From Naegleria gruberi (taxonomy: Eukaryota), in NCBI GenBank assembly GCA_000004985.1, contig GG738861.1: DNA of 64,000 bases. One strand, given 5' to 3'. Both the position numbers and the translations under genes were made by a program. This document shows, in pieces, positions 10,478 through 57,600 of this stretch (positions within the stretch are counted from its first letter, which is position 1; each line of letters begins with the position of its first letter). A model generated the notes under the pieces. That model searched no databases. It was not told where the DNA came from and saw only the letters and a program-made list of their open reading frames with translations.

Positions 10478-11968
10478 TTAAATTTCTTCTCTCGATTCTG
10501 ATTGTTTTAAGTAAGGAGTTCCAAGAATCTTACACTTAATCTTATCATAGAGGGAGAGAATAGGTGTGGACAGTGTCTTTTTAAGCTTGTCAATGAAGAG
10601 ATTGTCCATGTGGTGTTTGTGTTCAGTTCTCCAACCGTGAGCCCACCAAAACAAGACACCAATTAAAATAGAACCACCAATAGTATTACCAATAGTTACT
10701 GGAAGCATGTTACCAATCAAAAAGTCATAGACAGTAATTGGGGAACCATACCTATGATTATTATGATTAAAAATAAATAATTATTAATTATTAAAAATAT
10801 TAATTTTTAAAATTAAATTAGTAAAAATAAATTAAATTGTTACTAAAATTAAATAAATAGAAACTTACATCATCGCTAAAGGTATAAAGAAACCATTTGC
10901 AATGGAGTGTTCAAAACCTGATGAAACGAAAGCCAAAATTGGTAAGAACAAACCAACAACCTTATCTGTAATTTTTTTAGAACCATACGTAGTATAAACA
11001 GCTAGACCTACAAGCCAATTACAAGCAATAGCCAGTACAAAATTCCCCCAAAATCCTCTAAACGCCTTCTTCTCTCCAAAGTGAATTGCATAGTCTACAT
11101 AGGCAGCTCTAGTTGATTCTTCAATATCGTGAGCTGGGGTTGGTAAATACATGAAAAAGTAGGCAACAGCCAAAGCACCAAGCAAGTTAAAAATCAAACT
11201 GGTTGTCCAATTTCTAACAAGGTCATATGGATTAATTTTACCTCTCAATAAGGCAGCCATCAAAGTCATGGTATTACCAGTATAAAGTTCTGAACCAGTC
11301 AACAAGACCAATGTCAAACCAACTGAGAAAATACCAGAGAAAAACAATTTGGTCAATCCAGGATTTTCCTTTTCAAGACCAGGCATATTACCACCAGTCT
11401 TAAGGGCAGCAATAGAACCAATACCAATGAATGCACCACCAAGAAATGAAAGGATAATCAATTGATCGAGAGTCTTACCGACCTTCTTCATACCAATCTT
11501 GGTCATGATTTTTTGACGAGAGTGAGGATTACAACGAATGAGTCTATCTTCTTCTTCCATTTCCTTTCTTTGTTGCTCTTCTTGCATTTCCTTCTCTGTT
11601 CTTTTACGTTCAAGTGCTATCTTCTTCTCTTGAGCAGTTTGAACTCTATGTCCCATTTTCACTTTATAATGATCTGCATCAACTGAGTGAGTCAACACTT
11701 CCTTTTCACTTGGTTCAAAGAAACCAGGTCCACCAATTTCATCTTCTTCTCCTTCTTCCAAAATTTCATCTTCAAATTCATTAGTTGCCTTCTTTGTTGT
11801 TTTTTGTTCTTGAATGGTAGCCATCAAAGTTAGAATAGTTTGCTCATAGAGTTGCACTTTCTGATTGAGCATTTCCAAAGTGAGAGGTTGATTAGCATTA
11901 TTAGGAGTTGTTGGTGTTGAAACAGATTGATTGCCATTGGCAACAGTGTTTAAAGCTCTATTGTTCAT
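10478..11968 (-). CDS. Formate/nitrite transporter (FNT) family channel with a ~150-aa charged, coiled-coil N-terminal extension. Two exons with an intron at about 10752..10868.
   Basis: Six-TM FNT core: ...LIILSFLGGAFIGIG..., ...FSGIFSVGLTLVLLTGSELYTGN..., ...LAIACNWLVGLAV..., ...SSGFEHSIANGFFIPLAMM. A GTAAGT donor follows ...AMM. After a tcatag acceptor the reading continues YGSPITVYDFLIGNMLPVTIGNTIGGSILIGVLFWWAHGW. The ORF-track start 11986 is a TTG. The first ATG is MNNRALNT at 11968. Confidence 0.7.
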
Positions 11969-16426: not shown

Positions 16427-17090
16427 TATTATTAATCAGTTAATGAGTTTCAATGATGAGGTAATGAATCAGTTATTTTCTTTTTTTGAATGGTCAATCA
16501 ATTGCCTCCAAATTATAATTAGCCTTAGTGCTTCTCTGAACAAGTAGTAAAAACAACTCAAAGAATAAATTGGCGGTAAGAAATCTGATAAAAACTCGAG
16601 TGGCGCCAATTCAGTTACTTTTTTTTTTCATTGTTCTTTAGTGCCGTTGTTTGAAATCCAATGATGAGAGAACAACATCCATTTGGAAAGAGAATAATAA
16701 TGAACAACATCCTTCAAGTATCTCAAGTATCGTTCATACACTCCCTCCAGCAATGGCAAGAGTTTCAATCAGGCACACTTCTACCTCTGGGCATTGGTTT
16801 AAAAAAGAGCTTTTCTCAATCCCATTATAGTTCTATCCAAATGTTGCTTTATAATTGGTGCTTCATCTCTCTCATCTCACCATCATGAACATCTAAAGCT
16901 CATACTTCTCCAAAATGTACTTACATCATCCACCCAAAAGATAAAGTACTCACCATTACTCATCATCGTAATCATGCTCTCTATCTTGTTACCCATGATG
17001 ATGATGATGTATGCAAGATCATTACGATTCGGAAGGTAAAAAGGTAGCTGATGCGAATTTTATAATTTTTTTAAAATCATCACAAAAAAA

Positions 17091-18152
17091 ATGGCTCTCG
17101 CATCACTCAAATATTCACTCGGATCGTCGGCTATCAAGCAATGGGACTCTGTTCAGAAGAACTTTTATGAGAAGGTTTGGAAAAACGAAGAAAAATTCTA
17201 CACCTATGTTGGAATTTTTGTTGGAGCTTTGATTTTAATCGGATTATTTTTGATTATTGCATTTTCAGGTGCTGGATCATCTGGTGTAGTCAAGTTTGAT
17301 CCATATCAAGTGATGGGATTGGATAAGAATTGTACTGATAAAGAAGTTAAGAGTCAATTCCGTAGATTGTCAAGAACTATGTAAGTTTATAATGTTAAAT
17401 TTGACATTTTTGACATTTTAAATAGGCACCCTGACCGTAACACTCAAGATGAACCAGAAGTTGCCAAACAAAAGTATCTCCAAATCAAGGAATCACAAGA
17501 CATTTTGTTGAATCAAAAGAGACGTAAGAATTTTGATGAACATGGAGATCCTGATTGGGTTGACCTCTTTGATTATGAAACTTATCCTGATATTTTGATG
17601 AATCCTGGAAAACCATTCGTTCTTTACACTACTTTCATTGCTGTTTTGTTCGGAGCTGTTCTTCCATTATCCTTCTTTGTTTTGCACCCAGCTTTGGAAG
17701 ATCCACCAGAATGGTTGACTGAAATTATTTTTGATACTATCAAGAGAGCTGAAAATGATTTGTCAAACGAAAATCTTGATTCTTCTTTGGAAAATTTGAA
17801 ACAAGCTGATGAATTGTGGAATGCTTTAATTAAGAGCTTCCCTGCTTATAGAAAATCTGTTTGGTGTGTCTTGATTGAAATCCGTATTGCTTGTAGACGT
17901 GCTCAATGCCAACTCTTCAAGGCATCAAACCTCAAGTCAAACACTAAGGAATTCCAAGATTTGATTAAAGAAACCACCCAAATGATGAAGACTACCAAGG
18001 ATCTTAATAATACTGTCCTCAAGACTTCCCAAACCAGAAAGGAAACCTTTGCTGTCATTTCACCATACTTGAAGGATGTCAAGAATATGATTGACAATAC
18101 TGACTTGAGAGGAAATATTAGAGATTTGGAAACACTTTTGACCACTTTTTAA
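17091..18152 (+). CDS. Membrane-anchored DnaJ (J-domain) protein. Two exons with an intron at about 17381..17424.
   Basis: Exon 1 encodes a TM helix (YVGIFVGALILIGLFLIIAF) and then the J-domain start DPYQVMGLDKNCTDKEVKSQFRRLSRTM. A GTAAGT donor follows. After an aaatag acceptor the reading continues HPDRNTQDEPEVAKQKYLQIKESQDILLNQKRRKNFDEHGDPDW, with the HPD tripeptide and helices III/IV. A C-terminal ~200-aa region has hydrophobic segments. Confidence 0.7.
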
Positions 18153-21613: not shown

Positions 21614-23006
21614 TTATTGGTCTGAGGCAGTTGTTTCAACAGTTGCTGCTTGTTCAGGGTCGGAACTTTGAATATTAAGAATGTTTTGAAGCATTGCCTT
21701 GTCATACTCATCATGGAGAGTCAAAACTTCGCAACCAATTAAGCAATTTTCGGTCATTGTTTCCTTATCTGTGGCTCGTATTCTGATGGTATGTTCGAAC
21801 TGTGCATTCACACAACCATCTTTTGCAGTGATGGTCCATGAGTCAGATTTCCAAGTTTTACTCTTTGTGGAGCCAGTTAAGATAACTGGTTCAATTGTAA
21901 AGACCATGCCTGGTTTCATCTTGTCAGATCCAACAAAATCTTTTCCGTATTTGTTTTTGACCATTACAATTTGTGGCAGTCCGTGGAATTCTCGTCCAAT
22001 ACCATGTCCAACATAGTCTGGACTGGATTTGAATGAAGTGCCATGAGTTTCATTGAATTTAGACAAGTATTTGTCAATTGCACATCCAATTTCTATATTT
22101 TCATAAATATTCATTAGAAATGATTCACACAGCAGAGTATAAACTTACTGTAGAGAGGAACTCCTGGTCCACAAACTTTGATGCCTTCCCATAATGCTTC
22201 TCTCGTTGCCTGAATCAATAATTTATATTCATTCTTGATTGGTTGATCTGGTTTTTCCTCATTTTCTCCAACAATAAATGTCTTACTGGTATCACCATGA
22301 AATCCATCCAAATAAACAGTAATATCCAAATTAATTAAATCAGAATACTTCAATGCTCTAGTATTTGGAATACCGTGCACGAGAATTTCATTAATTGATG
22401 TACACAAAGATTTTGGAAATTTGTTATATCTCAAAGGTGATGGATAAGCTCCATTCTCAATCTTTTTCAAAATAATATTTTGGTCAATTACTCCAAAAAC
22501 CACACAAATAATCAAATACTCACAATATAATTAAACACCTTTTCATCAATTTCCTCCGTTGTCACTCCTTCCTTTACCAAACTTCCTGCATATCGTAAAA
22601 CCTCTCCAGCCAACTTAGTTACTCTCCTAATACTATTCACATCTTGTTCATCGTTGTGTATTTCCAATTTCATTGAATAATCCCACGACTCCTTATCAAA
22701 ATATGGAGGTACTTTAATTTTCTCTGTATCCACCTCTCGGAATGAATTAACAACTTCATAGGCTCCCTCTTCCATCCTATCGGGAGTAAAATAGGGTGAT
22801 GAAGTTTTCAAAAAATCAGATGGTGATACTTTACTAGTCGTTGATTTTTGCAAACATGATGACTTTCCAACAATGGCAGCAATAAATTGATTCTTATTTA
22901 CTTTCCGAGTAGTGGTAGCAGCTGCACGAAAAAATAAATTAGTAAATTGTGCTGCTGGCGAGCGAATCTTAACTTTGTGCATTTTTTTTAAAGTTTTTTT
23001 ATACAA
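21614..23006 (-). CDS. Methionine aminopeptidase type 1 (MetAP1) with an N-terminal presequence-like extension. Three exons at about 22524..23006, 22149..22461 and 21614..22092.
   Basis: Exon 1 ends ...TTEEIDEKVFNYI before a GTGAGT donor. Exon 2 encodes IENGAYPSPLRYNKFPKSLCTSINEILVHGIPN...DITVYLDGFHGDTSKTF.... Exon 3 encodes IGCAIDKYL...YVGHGIGREFHG...MKPGMVFTIEPVI...DSWTITAKDGCVNAQFEHTIRI. The metal ligands D, D, H, E, E are in context. The N-terminus MHKVKIRSPAAQFTNLFFRAAATTTRK looks like an organellar targeting peptide. Confidence 0.8.
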
Positions 23007-28285: not shown

Positions 28286-29488
28286 ATGGAATCACAACCA
28301 AAGAAGAGGAAATTCAACAACTCTGAAAATGACTCTGTAAAAATAATACTCTCAGACAATGATCCTCCCAATGAAATGCACCTACCAATGATGAATCATC
28401 TCTTATCGGGATTGAAAAAACAATTACGAGGAAGTAAGGTAAAGAAATTTGTTACTGATTTCCTTCCGACCAATTCCATTCTCATTAGCGATCCAAATTT
28501 TAATTTTAATTATTGGAGTGTGATGATGATTGTTTATTGTTGTTCAATGGGGCAGCTATTTGTTGGAAAGGATGATTGTATTTATGTATTTAATTTGCAA
28601 AGTGGGTTGATGGAGAGGACTATTAGTTTAAATAGAGAAGATTTTGAAGAGTTTCGTTCGTTTCAGGTGGATGACGAAGGGGAGCATATTTATTTATTTC
28701 GTAAACATTTATTGACAAAGAAGAAACTTGACGATTCATTGACTCTGGTGTGGAATGTTGATATTGTAAGCCCCAATTCAAAATTAAGACATGAATATGA
28801 TATGTATTATTATAGATCAAAGAATGAAATTTACATGTACAGGCAAGATTTCAGGAATAATAGAATGGATATTCGAGTAATTAATGCCAAAGATGGATCG
28901 ATTAAGAGAAATATGACAATAGAATTCGATTCACGATTGTATTTTGTAGATGTAGCATCTAAATCCACAAAGATGTTTTGTGATGAAAAAGAAGAGCAAT
29001 TATATTTCGTTGTTAGAGTGGGACTTTTTGATAACGACGAAGTATCAGATGAGCACTGGATCGCTATCTGGGACGAAAAATCAAACAAAGTAAGCCTCAT
29101 TGAGATCGATTATGAAATTGATTTTATTGCAACTCCAGCTGATGCCACCTATTTCGTGTGTTATAGTGATATGATAGGATATGTCTATGACAAGAAAACG
29201 AACTCTTTACTAATTTCATTCCCTCCAATTTCAGATCCTATTTTGCATTTTGAAAACTGTTCTCAGACATTTTTTCTTTCAGATACGTCATCAGTACCTA
29301 ACTCAATTAGAGTAGAGAAATTGGAAATATCAACAAGTATTATCGATACTCCATTGAAGAATGAAACATGTAAGGAAATTGAGCGATTGGGTAAATTGCC
29401 ATTAATTATCCACCAAAATAAGAATGGAGAATTGCCAGATTGTGTGATCTATTTAACAAGTATTGAATTTGTAGATTGTAAATTATAG
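28286..29488 (+). CDS. Hypothetical 400-aa protein. It is in the same frame as the next ORF and separated from it only by a TAG codon.
   Basis: ATG start. No recognisable motif. The sequence is rich in aromatic and beta-strand-like segments. Confidence 0.35.
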   Translation: MESQPKKRKFNNSENDSVKIILSDNDPPNEMHLPMMNHLLSGLKKQLRGSKVKKFVTDFLPTNSILISDPNFNFNYWSVMMIVYCCSMGQLFVGKDDCIYVFNLQSGLMERTISLNREDFEEFRSFQVDDEGEHIYLFRKHLLTKKKLDDSLTLVWNVDIVSPNSKLRHEYDMYYYRSKNEIYMYRQDFRNNRMDIRVINAKDGSIKRNMTIEFDSRLYFVDVASKSTKMFCDEKEEQLYFVVRVGLFDNDEVSDEHWIAIWDEKSNKVSLIEIDYEIDFIATPADATYFVCYSDMIGYVYDKKTNSLLISFPPISDPILHFENCSQTFFLSDTSSVPNSIRVEKLEISTSIIDTPLKNETCKEIERLGKLPLIIHQNKNGELPDCVIYLTSIEFVDCKL

Positions 29489-29548
29489 TATACAGACAGT
29501 TCAACACCCAAGTATTTTTCTTTTGAAACACATGACACTGAGGAGGGG

Positions 29549-30106
29549 ATGATAGAAAAGTGGGTTGGTGAAAATGACATTATTGTGATTGGAGGTTTTG
29601 CTGGTCCTGAGCTTGATTATAACTGTTTTGCAGCATGTCTCTATGTAAAGAAATCAGAGGTATTCAGTGTGTCGGATGGAGATTTTCAAGTCCATCTTTG
29701 TGGTTCGCTTATTAAGGATAATAGCACCAAAGTTACAACCAAGACATTTACGCTCTCTGAATTATTATCGAAAGTGAAAGTAGTGGAATATGTTGAATTT
29801 GATGATGGAAATTTAATTTATTTGATTGATTTCGAACAGATTTATTTCGATTTGTTGCAAAACCAAATTATTAATCGAGAAACAAGAGAAATTGATCAGA
29901 AAATACTTGCAGAATCATATAGGGGGATTTATTGTGGATTTAATAAGAAATATGAACGTTTGGGAAAATATTTTAAATATTGGACGATTAAATTCGACAA
30001 TACCTGTTACAAAATGATAGATCTAATTGTATTGTCAGATTATTGCTCAAGGTATTGCTTTGTACATATTGACATTGAAGAGTGTGTGGAGAGTTATTAT
30101 ACTTAG
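29549..30106 (+). CDS. Hypothetical 185-aa protein. It may be the C-terminal part of the preceding gene.
   Basis: ATG at 29549. The 60 nt between the TAG at 29486-29488 and this ATG are open in the same frame as ORF 28286..29488. No domain recognised. Confidence 0.3.
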   Translation: MIEKWVGENDIIVIGGFAGPELDYNCFAACLYVKKSEVFSVSDGDFQVHLCGSLIKDNSTKVTTKTFTLSELLSKVKVVEYVEFDDGNLIYLIDFEQIYFDLLQNQIINRETREIDQKILAESYRGIYCGFNKKYERLGKYFKYWTIKFDNTCYKMIDLIVLSDYCSRYCFVHIDIEECVESYYT

Positions 30107-30328
30107 TGTTGAATAGTTGTAAAACCAAATGAATGAAACAATTAGATATGGACAAATTGACCAATTGCAGAAGGAAGTTTAACTTGCCTTAATATCCAGG
30201 TTTATCAATAGACAATTCTTGTTGTGTCAAGTCAACTCCATTTTGGAAAGTCAATTAATTGTTAGAAGTACTAAGAATCTAAATTTAACTTCGAAAAGGA
30301 AAAAGGAAATTAAAGAAACATTAAAAAA

Positions 30329-33300
30329 ATGCAACCATTCGAGCAATGTAAAATATTGGAGGTTTTTCTTCCTGATCCGATCAATCAATTCCTCACAAAG
30401 GAGAAGAAGAATAGTGATCGGGATGAAAAATTTGAATTATTACACGATCATGAATTATTACAAATAATTGAATATTATTTTGTAGTGAGTTTAAAGAGGG
30501 AGGATATTAAAAATCAATTGGAAACCAGTTTATTATCGACAATGATTTCATCTTTATCGGGTGGATCAGAAAATCAAACACAAAATATGGTGAAAATTTT
30601 GGAGAGTTTTGCTGCTGTCTCTCAATTCTTTTTGGAGATTATTAAGAAACAATATGATGGATATGCAGGTGTGGATACATCAGATATGTTACCTGAGGAG
30701 ATTCCACGTTTGATCAGATTGGCAAAATATCTTGAATTGAAAGATTGTAAAGAGTTTATTGCATTTTCATATATCTTTACTTGTCAATCAAGCAATTTAT
30801 TGGCAGAAGTGGTTTTGTCTAGATCATCGAAAAATAATTCTGGAATGAGTAATATAATGACTATTGCTACCATGTCTATAATTGCAGAGATGAGTACTCT
30901 TGAAACTTTGAGTTTTCTGAGTCCTAATAGAGAACACATCCAACAGGGAATTATTATCATTGACTCTGGTTTTAGAGATAGTCTTTCAGTTAATATTCTC
31001 AAAATGCCAAGAGAATGTATCAATGCACTGGTGAAGTGTCCATTAACTCCAGAGGAATTTCTCAAAATTGACAAGACTAAATTGGCAGATGTATTGCTTG
31101 AGGAAAGTACATTTGAATTACCAGGTATAAAATCAGTCACAAAACAAAAAGGTTTGGAGAGTAGTGAAGATGGGAATGAGGAAGATCTGGAGGATATTGA
31201 AATTGACGATGATGAAATTGAAAGAGAATTAGCTCTATTAGAAAATGGAAAGGAGGGTACAACAGATAATAATTTCAATGTTTATGAATTCATTCAAAAA
31301 GACAAATCAGATCCAAAGGCAATAGTTCCACCAAAGAAGCCTCTAACCTCAAATATTGAAGTCTCAAATTCTGAGGACTTTCTATCTCCTTACAAAAATG
31401 ATATAGAATATCTGGACGATAGATTTAAATATCTTTGCCAAAAAATCAGACTTAGAAATGTAGAACTAGATAAAATGTCTGAAGAAAATGAGGATGCAGG
31501 ATTTAAAATTACAAGAGATAGAAGTCATGAAAGTATTATAAGAGAATTGAAAGGAAAATGTCGTCTTCTCTTAAATAAGATTGAGAAGAGATCAGAACAA
31601 ACCAAGAATAACTTTATTCCAAGATTAGAAAAGTTGGCAGCCATTAGAGGACTGGATGAATTTGAAAAATGGATTTTGACAATGTCTGCAGCCACAATCA
31701 TATGTCTTGAGGTGACAATGGCAGCAAATGCCACCAATCACAGAGCAAACTTTTCAAGAGGATTTACTGTTGGCTATCTCCTTTGGATTTTATGTGATGA
31801 TTTGGAACAGAGAATGGCATGTCGTTCCTATTTCTACAAGAAGTCCAAATTGATTTTGGATGGTATGATTAGATTGAGTGACAAAATGAGTGATGATCTG
31901 ATGGAATGTTATGTAGATATGGACAGAAGAATGTTAGATTATTTATGCAATATGGACTTTGAATTTTCACAGGTTGTGGAAGGTTCTCATCTCTTCTTCC
32001 CCAAAGTGAAATTAGAAAATGTTGTTTTACCTGACTCTCAAAAATCATTAATTGTTGACACTGTTGCCAATTATGAAAGATTCAAAAAAGCCAGATTACA
32101 ATTAGGTTTTGAAGATATCATTTCGTACGGTAATTCAATTGTCATAATGTTCTACGGAGAATCTGGAACAGGAAAGACAATGATGGCAAATGCCTTAGCA
32201 AATCATCTCAACCAAAAACTGCTGCTTGTTAATTTTTCCAACATGACTGAACAGAAGGGAGAAGTTATGAAATACGTATTTAGAGAATCAAAGATTAATA
32301 ATGCCCTTCTCTTCTTTGATGAGTGTGAATCCTTTTTCGAATCTAGAAAACGATCAAACTCTGACGTTACAGCTCTACTCACAGAGATTGAAAAATTTGA
32401 TGGCTTGATTATATTGGCCACCAACAAACAATATGAATTGGATGAAGCCATGCATAGGAGAATCACATTGGCCATTGAGTTTAAAGCTCCTGATCCATTG
32501 TTGAGAAGGCAAATTTGGGAGAAGCACATACCTCCTCAAGCCAATTTCGCAAATGTAGATTGGGAAAGTCTTTCTCAAGATTTTGAACTCACTGGTGGCT
32601 TGATTAAGAATGCAATTTTGAGTGCTCTCACTTTTGCCATTTCAAGAGACTCTGAAAATCCTGTCATTACTCATAATGACCTCGTAAAAGCATGTCAATT
32701 ACAACTAAAGGGTCATCTCAAAATGGGAGAATTCGAAAAGAAGATTATTCCAAAAAGAGGACTACCAGATCTCATTCTTTCAGAGAGCTTGAAAAATCAA
32801 GTTAAGGAAGTTATTCAATTTGAAAAGTCTAGGAAAATTTTGTTCAATTTATGGGGATTTGACTCTTCTCTGTTTAAAAAGCAGGGTACAACTTGTTTAA
32901 TTGTTGGACATGGAACAGGAATTGGAAAATCACTTTGTGCTGAGGTTATTTCTTATGAAATTGGAAAGGCCATGAAAGTTGTTGATATTAATGAATTATT
33001 GACCAAATACAGCTTCCACACAACCAAGAATGTTGAAGCCCTCTTTAAAGAATGTAAAGAGCTCGATGCAATTCTTGTATTGGAAATGAGCACAGATGAT
33101 TCCTCAGGCAATCAATTTGACAAGTCAATCAAAATTTTATTGAATCACTTGGAACACTACGAAGGTGCTGTCATTGTCATTACATCCTCACTTACTTGCC
33201 TCGATAGTTCATTAATAAGAAGATTTAAATTTGTCTTGAACTTACCTTCGCCATCCCTCACTGAGAGAAAACAAATGTGGCAAAGACTCATTCCAGAAAA

Positions 33301-33526
33301 AGTGCCAAAGAACATTACCATGGAAGAATATGATGAATTGGCAGAACACTACTCTGAATTTTCTGGTGGAAATATTGAAAATTGCATCTTTAGGGCTTGT
33401 TCTAGAACTGCATTTTCCTCAAATCCAAATCTTTCTTTTAAATTGTTGAGAGAAAGTGCTGAGGAAGAATTGAAAAATTGTGGCTTGTTTATTAGTCAAG
33501 CAGCTAAATCATCTCTGTATTTTTAA
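30329..33526 (+). CDS. Tandem AAA+ ATPase of 1065 aa. It has a ~550-aa N-terminal region of unknown function, a canonical AAA module, and a second AAA-like module with a degenerate P-loop.
   Basis: AAA1 has Walker A IVIMFYGESGTGKTMMANALANHL and Walker B LLFFDECESFF. Sensor-1/SRH is ILATNKQYELDEAMHRRITLAIEF. AAA2 has TCLIVGHGTGIGKSLCAEVIS (GxxGxGKS with His in the GPP position) and ILVLEMSTDD. The C-terminus has ...LIRRFKFVLNLPSPSL.... An acidic EDGNEEDLEDIEIDDDEIERE tract lies in the N-terminal region. Confidence 0.75.
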   Translation: MQPFEQCKILEVFLPDPINQFLTKEKKNSDRDEKFELLHDHELLQIIEYYFVVSLKREDIKNQLETSLLSTMISSLSGGSENQTQNMVKILESFAAVSQFFLEIIKKQYDGYAGVDTSDMLPEEIPRLIRLAKYLELKDCKEFIAFSYIFTCQSSNLLAEVVLSRSSKNNSGMSNIMTIATMSIIAEMSTLETLSFLSPNREHIQQGIIIIDSGFRDSLSVNILKMPRECINALVKCPLTPEEFLKIDKTKLADVLLEESTFELPGIKSVTKQKGLESSEDGNEEDLEDIEIDDDEIERELALLENGKEGTTDNNFNVYEFIQKDKSDPKAIVPPKKPLTSNIEVSNSEDFLSPYKNDIEYLDDRFKYLCQKIRLRNVELDKMSEENEDAGFKITRDRSHESIIRELKGKCRLLLNKIEKRSEQTKNNFIPRLEKLAAIRGLDEFEKWILTMSAATIICLEVTMAANATNHRANFSRGFTVGYLLWILCDDLEQRMACRSYFYKKSKLILDGMIRLSDKMSDDLMECYVDMDRRMLDYLCNMDFEFSQVVEGSHLFFPKVKLENVVLPDSQKSLIVDTVANYERFKKARLQLGFEDIISYGNSIVIMFYGESGTGKTMMANALANHLNQKLLLVNFSNMTEQKGEVMKYVFRESKINNALLFFDECESFFESRKRSNSDVTALLTEIEKFDGLIILATNKQYELDEAMHRRITLAIEFKAPDPLLRRQIWEKHIPPQANFANVDWESLSQDFELTGGLIKNAILSALTFAISRDSENPVITHNDLVKACQLQLKGHLKMGEFEKKIIPKRGLPDLILSESLKNQVKEVIQFEKSRKILFNLWGFDSSLFKKQGTTCLIVGHGTGIGKSLCAEVISYEIGKAMKVVDINELLTKYSFHTTKNVEALFKECKELDAILVLEMSTDDSSGNQFDKSIKILLNHLEHYEGAVIVITSSLTCLDSSLIRRFKFVLNLPSPSLTERKQMWQRLIPEKVPKNITMEEYDELAEHYSEFSGGNIENCIFRACSRTAFSSNPNLSFKLLRESAEEELKNCGLFISQAAKSSLYF

Positions 33527-36285: not shown

Positions 36286-37380
36286 ATGAGTGTCTTTTCC
36301 TCAACACCACCCTTAATGGGGGCGACCTCAACAGTTGAGAAACCTCAAGAAGAGTTATCACTGATAGAGTTTATAGAGTCGGATGAGAGTTTGGATGCAG
36401 ATTTGGGAGAGATGGATCCATTGCTAGTAATTGATTTTCTTGTGGAACAAAATAAAAAGCTTTGGAATGAAAAGATAAAGTTTGAGAATGTAAGTCTTTT
36501 TAAATGTTATTGATGATGTATTGATTATTTATGTAATGAATTCGATAATTTCGGATCACAATAGTATGCCCTCTCTTTGAATCACTCTTTGGAGACTTCC
36601 GAACAAAAGTTGAAAAAGTTAGGAAGATACAAGAAGGCTCTCCTTCAAGAACAAGAAGAAAAGGAAAAGTACAAGAACAAATGTGAGGACCTCGAGAAGG
36701 ATTTGAAAAAGAATTCCTCAATGAGAGAAGCCTCAACAAATTCACTCTCCCTATCAGTGGAACAATTGCAAAGTACCGTTGCTCAATTACAATTAAAAGC
36801 ACAGCAGTCGGAGAGTGAACGAAGGAAGATTTCATTGTTTGCTGCTAAAGCAAAAACAAAAATTAAGGAAGTCAAGCTTGATCATAAGAATTTGAAAACT
36901 GATGTTAAAATGGTTACTAATCGATTCCTTGATGATTTCCAATCTCTTTCGACTCAATTACAAAAGCAAGTTAGTACACATTGCGAACTTGCTGAGGATC
37001 AATACTATAAGTTGGAACAAAAGTTCAGTAACTTTATGAAAGACAGCGAAGATCAAGTTAGAGAAACTGCTGGTTACCTCTTGAAGGTTGGTAAGACTGT
37101 TAAATCTTGGAAGAGAAGATGGTTTGTCTTTAGAAGAGATTTAACATTTAGTTATTTCAAAACTGTAGAAGATGTTAAACCATTAGACACTGTTGATGTA
37201 TCTATGGAAGATTCATTGGATGTTTCTGCTGATATTTCTCAAGGAAAACCATTTGCATTCAAGCTTGTAACCACAAATCGAACATATTTCCTCTGTGCCA
37301 CTAATGAGGACGAAAAGAGAAGGTGGATCTCAGTATTAAGGAGATGGTTCGAAGTTAATAAGTCTTACTTGGACAAATAA
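36286..37380 (+). CDS. Coiled-coil protein with a C-terminal PH domain. Two exons with an intron at about 36490..36564.
   Basis: Exon 1 encodes MSVFSSTPPLMGATSTVEKPQEE...KLWNEKIKFEN before a GTAAGT donor. After a cacaatag acceptor the reading continues YALSLNHSLETSEQKLKKLGRYKKALLQEQEEKEKYK..., which is coiled coil. The C-terminal GYLLKVGKTVKSWKRRWFVFRRDLTFSYFK...FAFKLVTTNRTYFLCATNEDEKRRWISVL is a PH domain. Confidence 0.6.
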
Positions 37381-38129: not shown

Positions 38130-40496
38130 ATGATGAATAGTACAACATCAACAACAACAACAAGCTCTCTGGGTGAATATTCGGAGCAAAAATCCACTAC
38201 TACTAACCATCATCATCACTCCATTCCCTTCTCAATGCCAAATATTGTGAATAATACCTTCCATACTAATTTTGAAGCTTCTCTGTTACCTTTTACTTTT
38301 GCTCCTCCCCCAAGTAGATTCTTCTCTTTGCTTCATCATGATTCTGATGATGATCGTCGTCACCATCCCTATGAAGATAATCAGTATAACCAAAAACCAT
38401 CAAAAGTAATTATAACCAATAATAATGCAAGTGTTCATCAACAACAGACAATTGCAAACAACAATACTACTACTACTACTAATAGTGGTTGTTCAAATTG
38501 TTCCTCCTCATCCTCACATTCATGTTCTAACAATTTGCAGCAACAACAACAACAGCAATTATCATCATCAGTTAGTAACAATGTTTTTGTTCCTAACCAA
38601 TGCTCTTCCTCCTATAATTATAATTCATCGACATGTAACAATAATTCGGATAGTATTAGTAGTCAAAGAAAACGATCATCATCCTCAGCCAGTAATAAGA
38701 CTAATACCTCCTCTACCACAACAAAATCCCAACAAGAACAAATTGTAAATAAGAATCAGGAATTACTCGACGCTCCTGCTAGTGTACTCTTGTTGGAGCC
38801 TCCTTCATTATCTACCATTATTGACGATCATCACCCAACCATTCCAACCTCTGCCTATTACTTGAAGAAACAAGAAGAAGAAGAATATGGACCAAATAAT
38901 AATCCATCACTGCTGACTACTTCTCCAAAACATGCTCTTGATTTCAAGAAGAGAAGTTTCTCGCATGAAGCTGAAGAAATTAGTGTTGAAAATTGTGATG
39001 AGAGTGTTTGTTTAACGTGTGGATGCGAAGAGGATAAGGTTGAAGCCGAATTGAGATTACAAGATAAATTGGAGAGAAAAAGTCACAAGAGACGTATGGA
39101 AGGAAGTGATGAGGATGAACAAATGTCAGACGATAATACTTCTTCAACCACTGATAATTCTACCAAGAAGAGAAAAATGTTGTCAAAAGTGGAAAATTTG
39201 GAAGCACTGTCAAGTGTTTTACATCAACTAGAGCCAGATTGTGTTTTACATATTTTCGAATTTTTGAGTTTTTCTGGTAAGGACTATTGGTTTACTGATA
39301 TCAGAAATATGTATGGTAGATTTAGGTATAATAACCAAATTCTGCCATTATTCAAATTTGTTACAATTGAGCAACATAGTCCTTTAACTCTAGATGAAAC
39401 TAATAACCATGGAGCAATTAATTGCAACATCCAAAGCCTTACAATAGAAAGAAGAACAAACCAACCATTGGAATGTGAAACTGGTTATCTGAAAAAGCTT
39501 GGAAATGCTCTTAAAACATTTATTTATTACAACAGAAGTACTAATTTATCTAAAAATGTCTCTAATCTTGCCATCTCAATGATGTCTGACGAACAGAATG
39601 GAAAACCTAATCAAACTGATGTAATGGGTTATCTGTCCTCGGAAGATGAAGTTGATTTATCAAGCTTTGAGCTTATCGAAGACGAGAATAGTCACGTTAT
39701 TGGTTTGAAGAGAAGAGCTCGATCTGAGGGATCTTGCTTTTTGAGAGAAGTTTATAGAAATTGTAGAGTTTTGGAAAAACTGAAGATTGTCGATATTAAG
39801 GGATACGTTCCTTTCAAAGTATCCATGAGACCTGGAACTAATAGACCAGTCGATTGTTTAGCATTCACCAATACTCTTACGAAGATAAGATTGTATAATT
39901 GTATGCTTCCTAATCACACTTTGCAAGCTATATCTAAAATGGTCAATTTGAAGAGTTTGCACTTTGAAAAGATATTTGTGAGTGATCCAAATCAATATGA
40001 TGTACTATTGAAATTGCGTAATTTGGAAGTTTTGAAGATTGAAGTCTCTGAACTCCCACTAACAGTATTGAGAAACCTTCCTACTAGTTTGTCCAAGTTA
40101 ACAAAACTCTATATTAATGTCCTTTCTAATGGTAGCTTCGATGAGAATCTCAGAGTTGATCAGTTAAAGGAACTCAGATACCTGGCGTTGGTGAGCCACT
40201 TTAAAGTTGACTTATTGTCAATAATGAGAAATTGTCAAAAGTTGAAACATTTACATTTAGGATTTGATGTTTGCTTTAATCACATATTCCCTAATGAAAG
40301 ACTTGCTAGCTGTATTTTGAGAAATGTCTTCATTTCTCCAGACAGATCCAAAGTACTCATCCAAAACAACACCCTAGTCAACTTACAACTTTCCCCAGCA
40401 AGTATCAGAGCCGCACAAAAAGAGCTTACCTTTATCAAACAACAACGACAAGCCCTTGGTAAACCAACTCTTTCCATAACAGAGTTTTCACAGTAA
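38130..40496 (+). CDS. Low-complexity S/T/N/Q-rich protein with a C-terminal leucine-rich-repeat region and a possible F-box-like segment.
   Basis: The N-terminal ~300 aa are homopolymeric: TTTT, HHHH, QQQQQQ and Ser runs. The middle has LEPDCVLHIFEFLSFSGKDYWFTDI, which is F-box-like. The C-terminus has leucine-rich repeats (LKSLHFEKIFVSDPNQYDVLLKLRNLEVLKIEVSELPLTVLRNLPTSLSKLTKLYINVL...). Confidence 0.45.
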   Translation: MMNSTTSTTTTSSLGEYSEQKSTTTNHHHHSIPFSMPNIVNNTFHTNFEASLLPFTFAPPPSRFFSLLHHDSDDDRRHHPYEDNQYNQKPSKVIITNNNASVHQQQTIANNNTTTTTNSGCSNCSSSSSHSCSNNLQQQQQQQLSSSVSNNVFVPNQCSSSYNYNSSTCNNNSDSISSQRKRSSSSASNKTNTSSTTTKSQQEQIVNKNQELLDAPASVLLLEPPSLSTIIDDHHPTIPTSAYYLKKQEEEEYGPNNNPSLLTTSPKHALDFKKRSFSHEAEEISVENCDESVCLTCGCEEDKVEAELRLQDKLERKSHKRRMEGSDEDEQMSDDNTSSTTDNSTKKRKMLSKVENLEALSSVLHQLEPDCVLHIFEFLSFSGKDYWFTDIRNMYGRFRYNNQILPLFKFVTIEQHSPLTLDETNNHGAINCNIQSLTIERRTNQPLECETGYLKKLGNALKTFIYYNRSTNLSKNVSNLAISMMSDEQNGKPNQTDVMGYLSSEDEVDLSSFELIEDENSHVIGLKRRARSEGSCFLREVYRNCRVLEKLKIVDIKGYVPFKVSMRPGTNRPVDCLAFTNTLTKIRLYNCMLPNHTLQAISKMVNLKSLHFEKIFVSDPNQYDVLLKLRNLEVLKIEVSELPLTVLRNLPTSLSKLTKLYINVLSNGSFDENLRVDQLKELRYLALVSHFKVDLLSIMRNCQKLKHLHLGFDVCFNHIFPNERLASCILRNVFISPDRSKVLIQNNTLVNLQLSPASIRAAQKELTFIKQQRQALGKPTLSITEFSQ

Positions 40497-42275: not shown

Positions 42276-44889
42276 TTACTTTTCTGTGGCCATATAGACT
42301 CCTGTCCAATTTTCAGGAGGCATTGGTAATTCACCACTCATATACATGCAACATCTTGACATCATTTCTTGAGATGGTCCATCATCTGGATACTCTTCAA
42401 GGAATATCTCAAATTCTTTTAGGGCTGTTTTAAAATCTCTCTTCCAATAATGGGTTTCTAGAATGGTTGCATAACGATCACACATTCTTTGTACTTCATC
42501 TCCAATTTCTAATCTTTGACCGACTGGAGAATAGATTCTTCTTCCAATTGCTTTTCCTTTAACAGCAACGCAGTCAATCAGTCTGCAAACAACTAATGTC
42601 TTTACCTTTTCATAACAAGTATCAGAGATAAGCATATTGGTTGAATAGAGCTTGTTAATTCCTTCTAATCTTGCAGCCAAATTCACAGTATCTCCAATGC
42701 AAGTGTATGAATATCTATAACTAGATCCAATATTTCCCACAAGGCAATCACCTAATTACATTTTGAAAGATTAGAACCACTAAATACTTACCAACACTTA
42801 TTCCAATTCTTGTATATAATTGAGGCAAGTTATGCTTGATAAATCTCTTGTTGAGAAGATTTAGCATTTTCTGAATATCAAGAGCTGACTTAACTGCCAA
42901 ATATTCATACTTTTCAATAGTATCTGGAGCATTGAATAGAACCATCAACGCATCACCTATTTTCAAATTATATTTAAATTATAGTATCTTAATAAACATA
43001 CCAATAAATTTGTCCAAAACTCCCTTATTTTTGTAAATGATGGTACAAGTCTTTTCAAAATAAATATTCAACATTTTGATAAGCACACCTGGTTCCAATT
43101 GTTCTGAAATAGTTGTAAATCCCTTAATATCACTGAAAAATATAGCCATTTTCTTGCTCCTTACACCTAGCTCAAAACTTGATTGATCCCCTTTCATAAA
43201 TGTGCTGACAATTTCCACTGGTACATATTTCATAAATCCCTTCATTACAGAGCTCATTCTTGAAAAGTGGTCCTGCAAAACAAAAACTTCATAAAATATA
43301 GAGTTTCTTCCTTGATCCTCAACCTTTTCCAAGTCCATATCTTGTTCTTGATCATTTCTATCAGATTCTGAAGCTCTAGAAGTAACTTCACTAATCAAAT
43401 CAGCGGTATCAATTTGAATATTTTGCAATTCCTCCATTTTCTTTCCCAGTTGTGTTAATGGACTGGTTACAAAATAAGAAATTATAATTCCCACCACCAA
43501 AGAAATAACTACCACCAAAGAATCTACTATTAACACAACATCTCTCAATGTATACACATTTCCCATGTAGTCGTCTATTGCAATGAAAATCATACACTTC
43601 CAATCCAAACCGTACTTGTCTTTAATGTCTACCACCTCTAATCTGTACTCTGCTCCATTGACGTAGAATTTTGTTAATGGAATTGAGACATTTACCAAAG
43701 AAGTTCCATATGTGTGAATCAATTCAGATCCAATCTTGGCAACAGTTGGGATACTACTTTCATTCAATCTCTTTTTTTGAATAAACCCTTCTGCCTCCAA
43801 ATCAAATATAAAAATTGTATCGTTCAATTTGGAAGTGGCAACAATAACCATATCCTTGCTTTGGACAACATAGATAAACGAGTTCTTACTAATTTCTAAA
43901 TTTTGATACAAAAATATAGAAACACTTGCAAGATCCATATCCACTGATATCAATACATTCATTTCAGGCTCCAGTGTTTTGGTGTACTTGTTTAAAACAA
44001 TATTACTTTCATTCTTGATTGGAAAATAGGAACTGACCCAATAAAAACCATCCTTATCACAATAGGCATCCCCCCATGTTATTTTACCTAGTATGTTTCC
44101 CTGCTTCCACCAATACAAATCGTCCAAGTGGTTCACATAATAATTGTCACAATAATCAACTGGATCAGGAACGACATCAGTCCTTGCATCAATACTAGTC
44201 ACCTCATAGGTTCCATTAACCCAACAACCATCTCGATAAACATCTATAGCTGGTAGCCCTCTATCAGACCAAAACAAGCCAATATAAAGGTCATCCTTTC
44301 TAGTATATGACACATATGAGACGTTATTCACCACAAATTGAGCAAAAAGTGTTGAATAAATCTTACTGTACTCGAACGGTACAATTTCCTCATTGTACAA
44401 ACTTCTTCCCACGCTCTCTGTAATTCTGAAAGGAGCTGCCATAAAATTGGAAATAAATTCTGATGCTGAAAATTTTAAATTAGAACCCATCACTTTGGTA
44501 AATTCCTCAATAGACTGTTGTTGTACAGAAAGTGTGATGGCAAAGATGGTGAGTGTTGAAATTAATGATAGCAAAACAATACTAAGGGAAAAGCAGCATT
44601 TGATGGAGAGAATCTTTTTCAAAGATTTTGCTACATCCCTATGATTATCATGAAGCTCCACTTTTACCTCTTCCTTATCAATCTTGGAATCGGCTGTTTT
44701 CAACACTTGATTTTTACTAGTAAATATTTCCTCAACAGAATCCCGCATATTCACTCCATGAGCCAAATGCCCTTGTGAATCCTCTTGACGAGTTCTCTGC
44801 CAGGAGGATCTTGAATTCGTTAAATTTTCCTTCCTTACAACTTCTAGAGATTCATTGGAGGGAGAGGGTGTAATTTTACTCATTCCCAT
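42276..44889 (-). CDS. Receptor-type class III adenylyl/guanylyl cyclase: TM helix, ~330-aa extracytoplasmic domain, TM helix, cyclase homology domain. Three exons at about 43002..44889, 42792..42956 and 42276..42751.
   Basis: TM1 is CCFSLSIVLLSLISTLTIFAITL. TM2 is VVLIVDSLVVVISLVVGIIISYFV. The cyclase domain is ...MAIFFSDIKGFTTISEQLEPGVLIKMLNIYFEKTCTIIYKNKGVLDKFIG then an intron, DALMVLFNAPD...YTRIGISVG then an intron, DCLVGNIGSSYRYSYTCIGDTVNLAARLEGINK.... The metal-binding D...D residues and the transition-state N/R are in context. Both introns run GTATGT or GTAAGT to AG and keep the conserved motifs contiguous. Confidence 0.8.
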
Positions 44890-49707: not shown

Positions 49708-51778
49708 ATGAAGAAGGTTCGTTTATTTTCATAATCCACAACAATGATGTATTCTGGAAATTATAGTTTTTCAGCTCTCGTGCCTCCAAATCAGTAAATA
49801 TTGAAGATGTACCATTAAAGAATTGGACTAGCGATAACTTTAAACAATGGCTCACCGATGAAGGCTATGAAAAGAAGAATGTTGTTACACGTATGTTTTT
49901 ATCTATTTTACATTGTCTCTAAATCATAAATGGACACTTTGAATCATCATGTGGTGATGAATAACTTACCGATCATCAATTTGTGTGATGATGTTTGATG
50001 AATAATAACAACAACATAATGAAATACAAATGTCGTGATATTAACAATTAACAATTAACAACAACAACAACATTTGAAAAAACAATTTTATTATTATTAT
50101 TATATTATTTAATATATATTTACATACGCTTGGTTTATTATTATTATTATTATACAATTAAAACAGCACTGGCCAAACAACAATTTGATGGTGCTGCACT
50201 GATGCACATCAAAGTGGAAGATTTTACTGATAGTGGTATTCCTAAAGGAAGTGCACTCTCAATCTTTAACAAAATTGAAGAGTTAAAGATCAAACAAATT
50301 CAAACAGGACTTCTCCAAGATTCCGTTGTACAATTACCATCCATGGCTACCACATCAACAACTGGCCAACCACAAACAAATAGACCACTCCCAACAACTC
50401 CAACCACAAATGCTCCTTCTTCAAAACCACCATCCTATGATGATGATGAAGTTGGAGATTCTCCAGTCGATCCAAATAGCAAATATAATGAAATTCTTTC
50501 TAAACCAAATCAAAAGACAGATGAAGAAGAGGAAGATGATAAAGAACTTGCACGTGATTTGGAAGATCGTCCAACAACAGGTATCAATATGGGTACTACA
50601 TCAGGAGCAAGTAATTTTGGAAGTAAGAGTGCTTCAACTGGTATTCAATCATTTAATCAAGTACCTGAAGCACCATTGTGGAGTATTAACGAATTTTCTG
50701 CTAATCAAAAGACAAGTAAGTTTCAAAATTGAAATATTATTGGTTGACTAGTGACGTAGACTTTGAATTCTGTCTCACCAAGTTGGATAATCTGAAAGCA
50801 CAATATGATACTAACATTATTAGTACTATTTGTCAAAATTTGACCTTCCCAGAAAGATTCCGTTACAAGTATCTTAATCCACAACGTTTGCCAATCTATG
50901 CAAATCAAAGAGCAAAGGATCAACCATTTATGAAGGTTAAGATGGTTGTCACTGAAATGGGTGACGGTGCTGCTCACCGTTTCGTCAGAAGATTCGGCTC
51001 TTTATTCAAGCACTCAACAATTCAACAAATGGAATACGGAATGTTCCACACTGCTTTAATTATTGGACCTTGGTATTTGGAATGGGGTGATTCATCTATT
51101 GCCGTTGTTAGAAGTAAATCTAGTTCCAAGGCTGTTTTTGCAGTTGATGTTGCTAAGGTTATGGGATTGGAAAATGTTGCTAAATCTATTGATAAGATTG
51201 CTTCTATTTGTGCTCACTGGAATGCTCACAAGACTTATGATAACAAGGCCTGTAACTGTCAACACTTTGTCAGTGCTGTTCTTGAATATCTTGGCCTCAG
51301 AGCTGAATTTGAAAAGAATATTAAGGGTCCATTGCGTGTATACATGGATCGTCTGAAGAATGATGGTGTCTGTGATATGAGATATCATCTCGAACCAACT
51401 ATTCAAGATGCCATTATTAACAGCGATTGTAGTGAAGAATTGAAAAAGTTCGTGGCAGGTAAATCAGTTACTTTCAAGACTCACAAAATGTTGGACGAAT
51501 TTGTACATACTATTCAAAAGTGCAAACCACTCTACTTTGATGCCAATGGTAAATATGATTACATGTTACTCAAGTCATTCGATAGAGCTTTCTGGTTGCG
51601 TGCTCAATCATCGAAGGAGGCCGAAAATCCAGATGTTAAACCTTGGACTGCTGATAATGGTGATTGTTTGTGTCCTTTCAATGGAAGTGTTGATACAGAA
51701 ATTAATAACAGTATTGTTGGTAAGGATTACGAAGTCGAAGATGTAAGAATTCCACTCCCAGTCTTTAGAAAGAAATAA
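49708..51778 (+). CDS. Predicted fusion of a SAM domain with a DeSI/PPPDE-like (DUF862) cysteine peptidase domain. About four exons at ~49708..49716, ~49774..49890, ~50167..50715 and ~50853..51778. If exons 3 and 4 are not joined, these are two genes (49708..50732 and about 50930..51778).
   Basis: Exons 2 and 3 encode a SAM domain: WTSDNFKQWLTDEGYEKKNVVT, then an intron, then LAKQQFDGAALMHIKVEDFTDSGIPKGSALSIFNKIEELK. A Pro/Thr-rich linker follows. A GTAAGT donor at ~50716 pairs with a ...tttgaccttcccag acceptor at ~50852. There is a gatactaacat branch-point-like sequence about 37 nt upstream. This joins frame 0 to the frame-2 ORF exactly: ...NQKT-K-RFRYKYLNPQRL.... The downstream domain has MEYGMFHTALIIGPWYLEWGDSSIAVV (His region) and YDNKACNCQHFVSAVLEYLGL (NCxHF Cys region), typical of the PPPDE/DeSI permuted papain fold. 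Confidence 0.5.
50059..50152. repeat. Cluster of simple repeats, (AAC)n and two (TTA)n tracts, inside the long second intron of the SAM-domain gene.
   Basis: ...caacaacaacaacat... and ...ttttattattattattat...ggtttattattattattattatac... read directly from the sequence. Confidence 0.65.
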
Positions 51779-54652: not shown

Positions 54653-57600
54653 ATGCCAGCAAGTTTTGCTCCATCGACTGCGAATCCTTTCGGGAGTGCT
54701 GCAAACTCATCGTATCTGTATGATGAATTTATCGAGACGGCCGATCTTACTCCACAAGAACAACATCATGAAAATTTTAAAACTTTTTTAAATGAGTTTC
54801 AATTGTTATCATCAAATATGCAAGATAGTTTTCATGATGATGTTGTTACACAATTGTTGGAGTCTCATGATCAATATCAAATTGGTTCGGCATCGGGTAT
54901 GCCTGCTGTGGGGAGTATTGGTATGTTTGTAATTTATTTGATGATGATTGTGGAAATTAACATTGTGGAAAATTAATAGGAAGTTCACAACCTTTGATTC
55001 GTTTCAGTTTTGCACCAAATGAAAATCTTAGATTTGATGAATTGTTACAAATTTCAACAGAAAATCAAATACTTCGTAAAGTTCTTTTAGTCTTTGCTCA
55101 CTTGTGTGAAGAAATGTCCTTCCTTTCTACATTTGCCAAACAACACTTCTTCCCTGCACTTTCACTTTTCGGAGTTACTGTTCAAGATCAAGATGAATTA
55201 GATGGTGAAAAACAATTACAATTTGGACGTGCCATTCCACTTCTTATGGATTTGTGGAATTTCTGTGCCAGATCTAACTATGTCGTCAAATCAACAATAC
55301 AACAACTGGCAAGCTTATTTTGTGATACTAATGTAAATGACAAAAACTTGGCCACTTACTTGGGAGGTCCTGGTGGTTCACAAAGTCAATATTCACATTT
55401 TGAAAGAGTATATGAAACATTGGGTGAATTATTAGGAGTTTTGATAACTTTGGATGAAATTATTCTTCAAAACAGTGCCTTCTCTCATCAGCTCACTCTT
55501 TACAAGAGAATGATCAGTAAGGGTATGTATCTAATTGTTGTTAATTAATTTGAGACTGATCATTATTTTCTCACATTATAGTTATGACTGAACCTGAGAG
55601 ATACGGTACCACAAAGCAAAATGTAGGAAAGGTTTATTATTTATTAGAAAAAGTTGAAGGAGATGTTCTTGATGATTCAATCTTCAAATCATGTATTAAC
55701 CAAGCTTTTGAAGATGTTGTAACATATACCCAATTAGTTCAATCTGAAAGTGGAGAAACACAAGAAAAATATGAATCACTTAATATTGCTATTCAAAAGA
55801 ATAAGATTCTTAAAATGGAATTTGAACATCATTTGAAATTACAATTCGAGGAAATTTTGAAAACTGTCCTTCCTCAACCAACAACAACATTTAATATTCA
55901 ATCTTCAGGAACTGCTTCTCTCTCAGGAAATAACGCTAATAACGCCACATTCTTGGAATCGATACTTGAAAAGAGATTTGATTTTGTTGGATTTTGTGGT
56001 CTTTACATTTTATACTTTAATTTGTGGATGGATAATCAAACCTTGAAAAAGCTCTTCAAGCAAGTCTGGGAATTCCACAAAAAATGTCCAATTATTCACT
56101 TGTATGGTAATACTGCTTGGTCTTCTGCTGAATTTTTCCTTGCCAAGGTACCAGATATGGTCAGACTTTCAGGTGTCAAGAATCCAAAGAAAGAAATTGA
56201 AGTCGACAGAAGTAAATATATGGACGGTTTAATTAAGAGCTTGTTCCCTAACATGGTCAATCAACTCAATTTGAAGATGAACATTTGGCAAAGTAGATTT
56301 GAGTCCAACTTTGATGTGTTGGCCTCTGCTGGTAGAGACGTACTTGCTGTTGAAGGCTCACTGTTATTGCAAGGTTTGGAACTTGCTCAACAAATCAATA
56401 CTCTTGTTAAGAATGGTATTTATTTGCACATTCTTGCTGCAAAGAGTTTGTCCATGTCACAAGTTTTACAATTATGTAGCATGGTAGAAATGGTAAAGAG
56501 TATTCAAAACAGTTTTTACAGAAAATCTCCTCAACTTGCCAAGCACATCAGTTACATTACTGAATTCTTAACTTTCAAGATTCAAAGATTCTTGGTTGTT
56601 CTCAGAAATAGACTTCAAACAAAGAAAAAGCAAAGTAATGCTGATGCTGATCAATTGAGTGCTGTACTCTTAGCTTTGCACTTGCTTGATTCTGGACACC
56701 CAAGTAAGAAGAGATTGGTCTTGCTTAGTCTCACATTATCTGTAGCTTTCTCACGTGCTTCTGGTTTGTTCAAGGAGTCTGAATATGAGGAAGTTAAGGT
56801 TTTGATGAAGAGATTGGAAGTTTTGGCTCATTTTGATGTCTTGTTGGGAGAATACTGCGACTGTTCTTACTTGTACTGGAATAGAAATGTAATCCCAGCC
56901 TTCTTTGATAAGGTTTATGAGAATCCATCTCGTGCTCCTCAACTTCACCTCATGATGTCTGCTCTGCAAGATCCTCTTTACAATGTACTCTTGTCAAGTA
57001 AGGATGGTATTACACCAGTTGCTGTTCACTTGGAAGATGGCGGCAAGGCACTTGTAGATGATTATGTTGATGAAATTATGAGCTATTTCAATGCTCATAT
57101 CGTTGATCCATTGTGTCAAGAAATTGAAACTGATCTCAGATTGCACATCCACAATACAAATGTGTTCAAGAAGAAGGCCATTGCCTCTCAAACAAAGGAC
57201 TTGTCTCCATTCTTCAAGACTTTGGGTCCAATCAGATTCCATAACAAGCTCATTGAAATTAAGAGACTTGTTGAAAAATACTTGGACAAGACATTCTACG
57301 ATTTTACTATTATTGCTCTCCACGATTGGAAGACATATGAAGAAATGCGTAATTTGGCCTTTGAAAAGTACGGACTCAACTTGATTAATGTTTATTTGCC
57401 AGGTCAAACTTTGGAACAAGGTCTTGATGTTCTTGAAATTACCAGAAATATTCATGTTTTTGTTTCAAAATTCTCCTACAATTTGAATCAGAACATGTTC
57501 ATTGAACAATGTGCCAAATCCGAAGCCAAGAGTCTCAATGTTTTGCACATTAAACATATTGCCAACTCGATCAGAACTCACGGTACTGGTATTATGAATA

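Follow-up and report, generated by a model that had tools for sequence, protein, structure and literature searches.

In Fusarium graminearum, AMD1, PUK1, and other genes carry a genomic TAG at a conserved tryptophan (Trp) position with an intact reading frame after it, and restorative adenosine-to-inosine (A-to-I) editing of the mRNA changes the UAG to UGG at such conserved Trp positions (PMC5496914, PMC10776026, PMC11156358), the edited A preferring a hairpin loop (PMC11156358). A single premature stop at a sense position in an otherwise intact open reading frame (ORF) is also what young or unitary pseudogenes and null alleles display. To our knowledge, restorative A-to-I editing is restricted to filamentous ascomycetes, and we know of no nuclear A-to-I mRNA editing in Heterolobosea. 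Here we describe a locus of the heterolobosean Naegleria gruberi, in a stretch of 64,000 nucleotides (nt) of nuclear DNA from contig GG738861.1 (assembly GCA_000004985.1) which we refer to as the window, where two ORFs on the plus strand are separated by one in-frame TAG. Judged by its homologs, the locus (28286..30106, + strand) holds the whole ancestral coding sequence of a single intronless gene, 606 codons followed by a natural TAG, interrupted at codon 401 by a premature stop that probably arose by recent mutation. With the Fusarium genes it shares the genomic TAG at a conserved Trp and the intact frame behind it; it differs from them in that the UAG is predicted to lie in a stem and in that the case is known from DNA alone. 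It resembles young pseudogenes and null alleles in having one premature stop at a sense position and an ORF that is otherwise intact but, unlike established pseudogenes, it has no secondary lesions and hence is not separable from a sequencing error.

Geometry and Annotation of the Locus

A previous reading of the window, made from the letters and a list of ORFs (the sequence-only reading), had pointed out a pair of same-frame ORFs split by a lone TAG, and on rechecking its coordinates were confirmed. The first ORF (28286..29488, +) encodes 400 amino acids (aa) and ends in a TAG at 29486-29488, the second (29549..30106, +) encodes 185 aa and ends in a TAG at 30104-30106, and the intervening 60 nt (29489..29548) are free of stops in the shared frame. 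The window is compact, with a GC content of ~34%, and this 60-bp gap is the smallest same-strand spacing of large ORFs within it (the next are 110 and 167 bp). With stops at 7.3% of random codons, 20 open codons are expected with P = 0.22 and a shared frame with P = 1/3; the geometry of the pair is not by itself beyond chance, and it is homology that gives the observation its meaning. An open frame of 205 codons would be expected by chance with P = 1.7e-7, from which we conclude that the downstream ORF is genuinely coding.

The first ORF has the exact sequence of a "predicted protein [Naegleria gruberi]" (P0001; NAEGRDRAFT_48197, EFC45793), and this reference annotation covers codons 1-400 only. 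The exact sequence of the 185-aa ORF was absent from a collection of 15 billion proteins, and the accession of the next ORF, a 1065-aa AAA ATPase (NAEGRDRAFT_48198, EFC45794), directly follows EFC45793; taken together these show that there is no gene model for the 185-aa ORF. The gene caller went no further than the TAG, leaving the 3' part of the gene unmodeled. Scanning of the window with Rfam and for tRNAs gave no match at all, and no paper on the gene came up when the literature was searched by locus tag and UniProt accession.

One Gene of a Paralog Family

Homologs were sought exhaustively with phmmer among 1.84 billion representative proteins, with the read-through translation of the locus, X standing for the TAG, as the query. 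Six were found, with E-values from 9e-59 to 2e-11, all of them N. gruberi paralogs annotated as uncharacterized "predicted proteins": NAEGRDRAFT_74123 (P0002), 72515 (P0003), 74118, 74124, 74125, and 67571. P0002 (565 aa, E = 9e-59) and P0003 (587 aa, E = 2e-42) align to query residues 5-594 and 13-594, respectively, each as a single stretch, and thus full-length members of the family span both ORFs as one protein. The sequence-only reading had suggested looking for a fused ORF at orthologous loci in related genomes; in paralogs, two such uninterrupted proteins are present, and its option of a single gene is borne out by full-length relatives that cover both ORFs and align without a gap at the TAG. 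The paralogs are collinear with the window copy from end to end (29-38% identity) and have in common with it a basic N-terminus (MESQPKKRK in the window copy, resembling MEPLRKKKK and MESPLKKKK in paralogs), the propeller region described below, the C-terminal end, and a conserved core, PLNxExCxxLEKLGGKLP...PECLQYL...KFWYxDKEIxKxFSF. The difference lies in the TAG, where the paralogs have Trp (Leu in one) and the full-length paralogs are uninterrupted.

To avoid circularity, a profile hidden Markov model (HMM) was made from the paralogs alone, with the query left out. The joined frame of the window copy matched this HMM with 315 bits over columns 15-499. The 400-aa ORF occupies columns 15-316, the match stopping at its last residue, and the frame after the TAG occupies columns 318-499, the match beginning with the first codon past the stop, so that the 60-nt "spacer" (29489..29548, +) consists of 20 homologous coding codons (YTDSSTPKYFSFETHDTEEG, columns 318-338). 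Each half scores ~152 bits (E = 4e-49 and 1e-48), and the only column skipped between them is 317, a Trp. The portion corresponding to the 185-aa ORF (29549..30106, +) matches columns 339-499 with an E-value of 3e-46; it represents the remainder of a C-terminal domain, and its ATG encodes an internal Met.

In the multiple alignment the stop column holds W in five of the six paralogs and L in the sixth, and the residues on either side of the TAG form the best-conserved block of the family, gap-free for ~20 residues per side. Immediately around the stop the query reads ...SIEFVDCKL-stop-YTDSSTPKYFSF and P0002 reads ...SVKFENSKFWYIDENIAKYFSF; over a longer stretch the query reads LPDCVIYLTSIEFVDCKL-stop-YTDSSTPKYFSF and P0002 reads IPECLQYLLSVKFENSKFWYIDENIAKYFSF. 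An uninterrupted frame across the conserved KFWY block is thus what the window copy lacks, its TAG (29486..29488, +) standing at the W column. The base composition of the spacer, with a GC of 0.40, also resembles that of coding sequence more than that of 11 introns of the window (0.08-0.30) or the flanking intergenic DNA (0.25-0.28). These alignments show that 28286..30106 is one intronless gene of the N. gruberi paralog family.

The same results bear on whether two independent genes might lie 60 bp apart here, or even three in a functional module with the AAA ATPase. Such an arrangement would agree with the common strand and the tight spacing, but full-length paralogs hold both parts in one polypeptide, the spacer is itself homologous coding sequence, and the ATG at 29549 lies in a context (GGAGGGGATG) that does not resemble the A-rich ones of other starts in the window. 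The gap-free alignment across the TAG refutes the reading as two genes, and overall we regard two genes or a three-gene module, for which further evidence is given with the AAA ATPase below, as extremely improbable.

No homolog outside N. gruberi was found at an E-value of 1e-3 in the exhaustive phmmer search, and the sole match in word-indexed protein searches, one with the family profile included, was the 400-aa ORF's own record; so far the family appears to be specific to N. gruberi. It has at least seven loci in this organism including the window copy, and four of the six paralogs are clustered on one different scaffold (261 kb). Some of the paralog models are unusual. P0004 runs into a non-homologous tail beyond ~450 aa, P0005 is without the N-terminal ~120 residues, and P0007 is a fragment of 164 aa with an at least 90% identical Logan/ENA protein (P0008) of 477 aa. 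These odd models suggest further damaged copies or further annotation errors.

Predicted Architecture of the Protein

The full 606-codon product is predicted to combine a basic N-terminus, a WD40-like beta-propeller, and an alpha/beta C-terminal domain of ~270 residues. Neither half had a significant family in Pfam or NCBIfam, the best Pfam match being the EMC1 propeller with an E-value of 0.038. An AlphaFold2 (AF2) model made from the 7-sequence alignment has a mean predicted local distance difference test (pLDDT) score of 61, with an all-beta domain at about residues 50-340 (51-356 in the model) that reaches pLDDT values of 70-90. A Foldseek comparison with the PDB gave 929 matches at E-values of 1e-3 or lower, headed by WD40 proteins (E of ~1e-11, target template modeling (TM) score 0.5-0.58). 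The predicted fold of residues ~50-340 is accordingly that of the seven-bladed WD40 propellers of PLRG1, WDR5, and RACK1, although the identity is only 8-12%, there is no Pfam WD40 match, and the model is of moderate confidence. The KKRK/KKKK motif at the N-terminus of the family may be a nuclear targeting signal.

The C-terminal domain, residues 336-606, formed one unit when modeled alone, with a pLDDT of 73 and a predicted TM score of 0.72. The part of the gene upstream of the TAG (codons 1-400; 28286..29485, +) comprises the KKRK motif, the WD40-like propeller, and the first ~65 residues of this domain. Since the TAG corresponds to residue 66 of the 271 residues in the domain model, a shortened product would lose most of the C-terminal domain.

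Introns of the Window and the TAG

Stops that interrupt a frame can be parts of short introns, and the window contains a true instance of the pattern that was suspected at 29486. The DnaJ gene (17052..18152, +) consists of two same-frame ORFs split by a single TAA, and this stop lies within GTAAGT, the donor of an in-frame intron 45 nt long (17381..17425); splicing restores the sequence ...SRTM|HPDRN with its HPD motif, and Pfam DnaJ columns 1-26 and 26-63 flank the intron. Another same-frame pair with one stop (1..480 and 481..2022, +) is probably split by a short intron too, the candidate being 42 nt long (455..496, GTAAGTTT...GGAATAG). Eleven introns of 40-117 nt were defined in the window (in the DnaJ, M24-peptidase, WASH-4, and other split genes), with Pfam profile continuity checked for those in the DnaJ, M24-peptidase, and WASH-4 genes only. 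Apart from the introns already mentioned, they lie at 10752..10868, 22093..22148, 22462..22523, 42752..42791, and 42957..43001 on the minus strand and at 36490..36564, 50716..50759, 54921..54979, and 55517..55581 on the plus strand. Every one of the 11 has a G at +5 of its donor (GTAAGT, GTATGT, or GTGAGT), ATAG is the usual acceptor, and the GC content is 0.08-0.30.

That N. gruberi has very short in-frame introns, as in the DnaJ gene, and that the TAG lies within several GT..AG pairs whose length is a multiple of 3 (29460..29555, 29460..29495, 29471..29512, 29478..29555, and 29370..29495) are points in favor of a spliceosomal intron that removes the stop. Every one of these candidates, however, would remove residues within 362-424 that are conserved without a gap in the six paralogs, and at this site the query has no insertion relative to them. 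The donors GTATTG, GTAGAT, and GTAAAT are also without G at +5, the GC of most candidates is 0.28-0.36, and the sole good donor, GTAAGG at 29370 (acceptor at 29495), would excise 42 conserved codons. The intron that the sequence-only reading had put forward, from the GTATTG at 29460 to the AG at 29555, suffers from the same lack of a +5 G and would delete residues 392-424, the most conserved block of the family; this suggestion could not be upheld. We consider an intron spanning the TAG to be refuted by the gap-free alignment of the paralogs, and its remaining probability to be virtually nil.

Origin and Age of the Stop

The premature stop stands where all six paralogs have a sense codon and is one substitution away from the conserved Trp codon. 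As TGG is the sole codon for Trp, a single G>A transition at 29487 (TGG to TAG) accounts for the stop. In the 25 large ORFs of the window, counting the premature TAG, the terminators are 19 TAA, 5 TAG, and 1 TGA; that TAG is a minority terminator fits what would be expected of a mutated TGG. A variant genetic code was considered and excluded, as four further large ORFs of the window terminate in TAG, one of these stops being the natural one of this gene.

No further decay, in the form of stops, frameshifts, or lost invariant residues, was found in the 606 codons. The 205 codons (615 nt, 29489-30103) that follow the TAG are fully intact, all of the family-invariant residues among them (V454, K456, D466, F467, and L471) are kept, and the density of the HMM score is 0.78 bits per residue downstream of the TAG vs. 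0.47 upstream. Of all possible single substitutions in these 615 nt, 6.3% would create a stop, and the probability that none arises under neutrality falls below 5% at ~0.08 substitutions per site. The intact 205 codons therefore indicate that the lesion is very recent, or is allelic, or is a base-call error.

A real and recent nonsense mutation is in our judgment the probable explanation, and the suggestion of a young pseudogene made by the sequence-only reading survives, with the TAG at a Trp column and the rest of the gene intact. According to this explanation codon 401 would have mutated from TGG to TAG very recently in the sequenced strain, NEG-M, and this member of a multi-copy, fast-evolving family would be a young pseudogene or, on one haplotype, a null allele. 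Translation would end at the TAG to give a 400-aa product in which the propeller is kept but ~205 of the C-terminal domain's ~270 residues are lost, and the downstream 205 codons would stay untranslated, as their first ATG is internal and in a poor context. Several considerations weigh against a real mutation. The intact and well-scoring part past the TAG fits an erroneous base or recoding equally well; the ancestral residue is deduced from paralogs that are just 29-38% identical, one of which has Leu; and a base-call error at 29487 would here be indistinguishable from a real mutation, just as a second, intact allele may exist. Two metagenome scans, one with protein and one with a 24-nt pattern with N at the variable base, found no second-strain sequence for the TAG site.

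The possibility that the organism has TGG and that the A at 29487 was miscalled in the draft assembly was likewise among the options listed by the sequence-only reading, and it has not fallen away, a single base change being sufficient. It draws on the one base that separates TAG from the conserved Trp codon, on the absence of a second lesion in the 606 codons, and on the conservation of the region past the TAG, which is as good as that before it, with V454, K456, D466, F467, and L471 retained. The site, however, is neither a homopolymer nor a repeat, a multi-fold Sanger consensus seldom contains substitution errors, and the odd models P0004, P0005, and P0007 fit a family that is truly losing copies. 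We therefore judge a sequencing or assembly error to be unlikely, albeit far from negligible, and give a real mutation the greatest weight because substitution errors are rare at non-repetitive sites and because other members of the family have odd models.

Readthrough or Editing of the TAG

It is also conceivable that the TAG is genuine and that full-length protein is made from it by readthrough or by A-to-I editing of UAG to UGG. Restorative editing in Fusarium has as its signature just such a UAG, placed exactly on a conserved Trp and with an intact frame behind it (PMC5496914, PMC10776026, PMC11156358), and the intact 205 codons suggest continued selection. However, the RNA features that were examined at the site are not those of recoding. 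The 3' context of the stop, UAG-UAU-ACA, matches neither CARYYA nor CUAG, which are known readthrough motifs, and the 120 nt past the stop fold worse than shuffled sequences (z = +1.67). Folding of the 35 nt on either side of the stop placed the UAG in a stem and not in a hairpin loop, both in the minimum free energy and in the centroid structure, with a z of -1.21 that is not significant. The readthrough or recoding option of the sequence-only reading is thus left with no supporting motif or 3' RNA structure.

Comparison within the window and within the family also argues against recoding. Nowhere else in the window was a conserved sense position seen to be occupied by an in-frame stop; of the other two one-stop pairs of same-frame ORFs, the DnaJ pair owes its stop to a short canonical intron and the second probably does too; and the stop is not conserved, the six paralogs carrying a sense codon in its place. 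Overall, we consider recoding of a genuine TAG improbable, and it is decidedly improbable that the TAG is corrected by editing or efficient readthrough to give a 606-aa protein under conditions such as differentiation or encystment. Were this so, the peptides encoded past the TAG (residues 402-606) would include YTDSSTPK, WVGENDIIVIGGFAGPELDYNCFAACLYVK, and TFTLSELLSK, and this would be the first example in Heterolobosea of a nuclear recoding event that corrects a stop.

The Neighboring AAA ATPase

The AAA ORF (30329..33526, +; NAEGRDRAFT_48198) begins 222 bp downstream of the 185-aa ORF, outside the unit described above. The sequence-only reading had given this distance as 220 bp, which is slightly off, and the strand correctly as the same. 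Its description of the protein as a tandem-AAA ATPase was confirmed by Pfam, which found PF00004 in two stretches in addition to PF22977 (WHD, E = 2.4e-58). The first AAA domain (D1) has the Walker A sequence GESGTGKT and the Walker B sequence LLFFDE, and the best PDB matches (Cdc48, AFG2, and p97) place the protein with the classical AAA clade (Cdc48/p97-like), to which it is only distantly related, with an E-value of 7e-16 over 150 residues. The second (D2, 32870..33080) has a Walker B of LVLE, the Asp being absent in N. gruberi and N. fowleri alike, and its P-loop in N. gruberi (GHGTGIGKS) has a one-residue insertion vs. that of N. fowleri (GPAGVGKS). From its sequence D2 looks degenerate, and it may bind nucleotide without hydrolyzing it. 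Identity of the neighbor with the anti-phage ATPase IteA (NF042959), the best NCBIfam match, was rejected, as it scored 116.7 bits vs. a cutoff of 510.

The reference model of this gene (P0012) is 994 aa long and corresponds to residues 72-1065 of the ORF, starting at Met72. The N. fowleri ortholog, FDP41_011776, aligns over residues 1-1065 with 61% identity, and we conclude that the 1065-aa ORF is right and that the 994-aa model is short at its N-terminus. The first 71 codons (30329..30541), missing from the reference model, are thus probably coding.

More distant WHD-AAA homologs are present in other organisms. The surroundings of four homologs, N. fowleri included, were inspected, with 4-23 kb recovered: 23 kb of N. 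fowleri (L001), a Logan contig of 28% GC (L002), two ENA contigs of 60% GC (L003 and L004), and a JGI contig (L005). The split-gene family was absent near the AAA homologs in all of these (family HMM E-values of 0.07 or higher and no tblastn hit). The sequence-only reading had proposed a three-ORF module, and this could not be sustained: there are two genes and not three, and no family member stands beside the AAA homologs. The AAA homologs of N. fowleri and three other organisms are without a nearby member, and the search returned one WHD-AAA protein from N. gruberi vs. seven loci of the split family, four of which are clustered on another scaffold. At these loci the adjacency of the split gene and the AAA ATPase is not conserved. 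The AAA ATPase is an independent, genus-conserved gene, and 222 bp is an ordinary spacing in a compact genome.

Implications

One further gene of the window, of 788 aa (38130..40496, +; NAEGRDRAFT_79315), has Logan/ENA proteins of 787 and 786 aa with at least 90% identity, indicating that close relatives of N. gruberi are represented in public run data; no public sequence from a relative that covers the split gene was found.

The locus amounts to a young pseudogene, a null allele, or a base-call error of an ordinary kind, combined with an annotation gap, and it would be of wider importance only if the TAG were proved to be corrected in RNA. For the annotation of N. gruberi it follows that NAEGRDRAFT_48197 models a gene of 606 codons in truncated form and should be flagged as stop-interrupted or be corrected, and that the 615 nt past the TAG (29489-30103) are homologous coding sequence lacking a gene model. 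A false lead is also removed, in that the AAA ATPase does not belong to a three-gene module here. For the biology of the organism, the analysis defines a small family of at least seven loci, with a propeller and a C-terminal domain, that appears to gain and lose copies.

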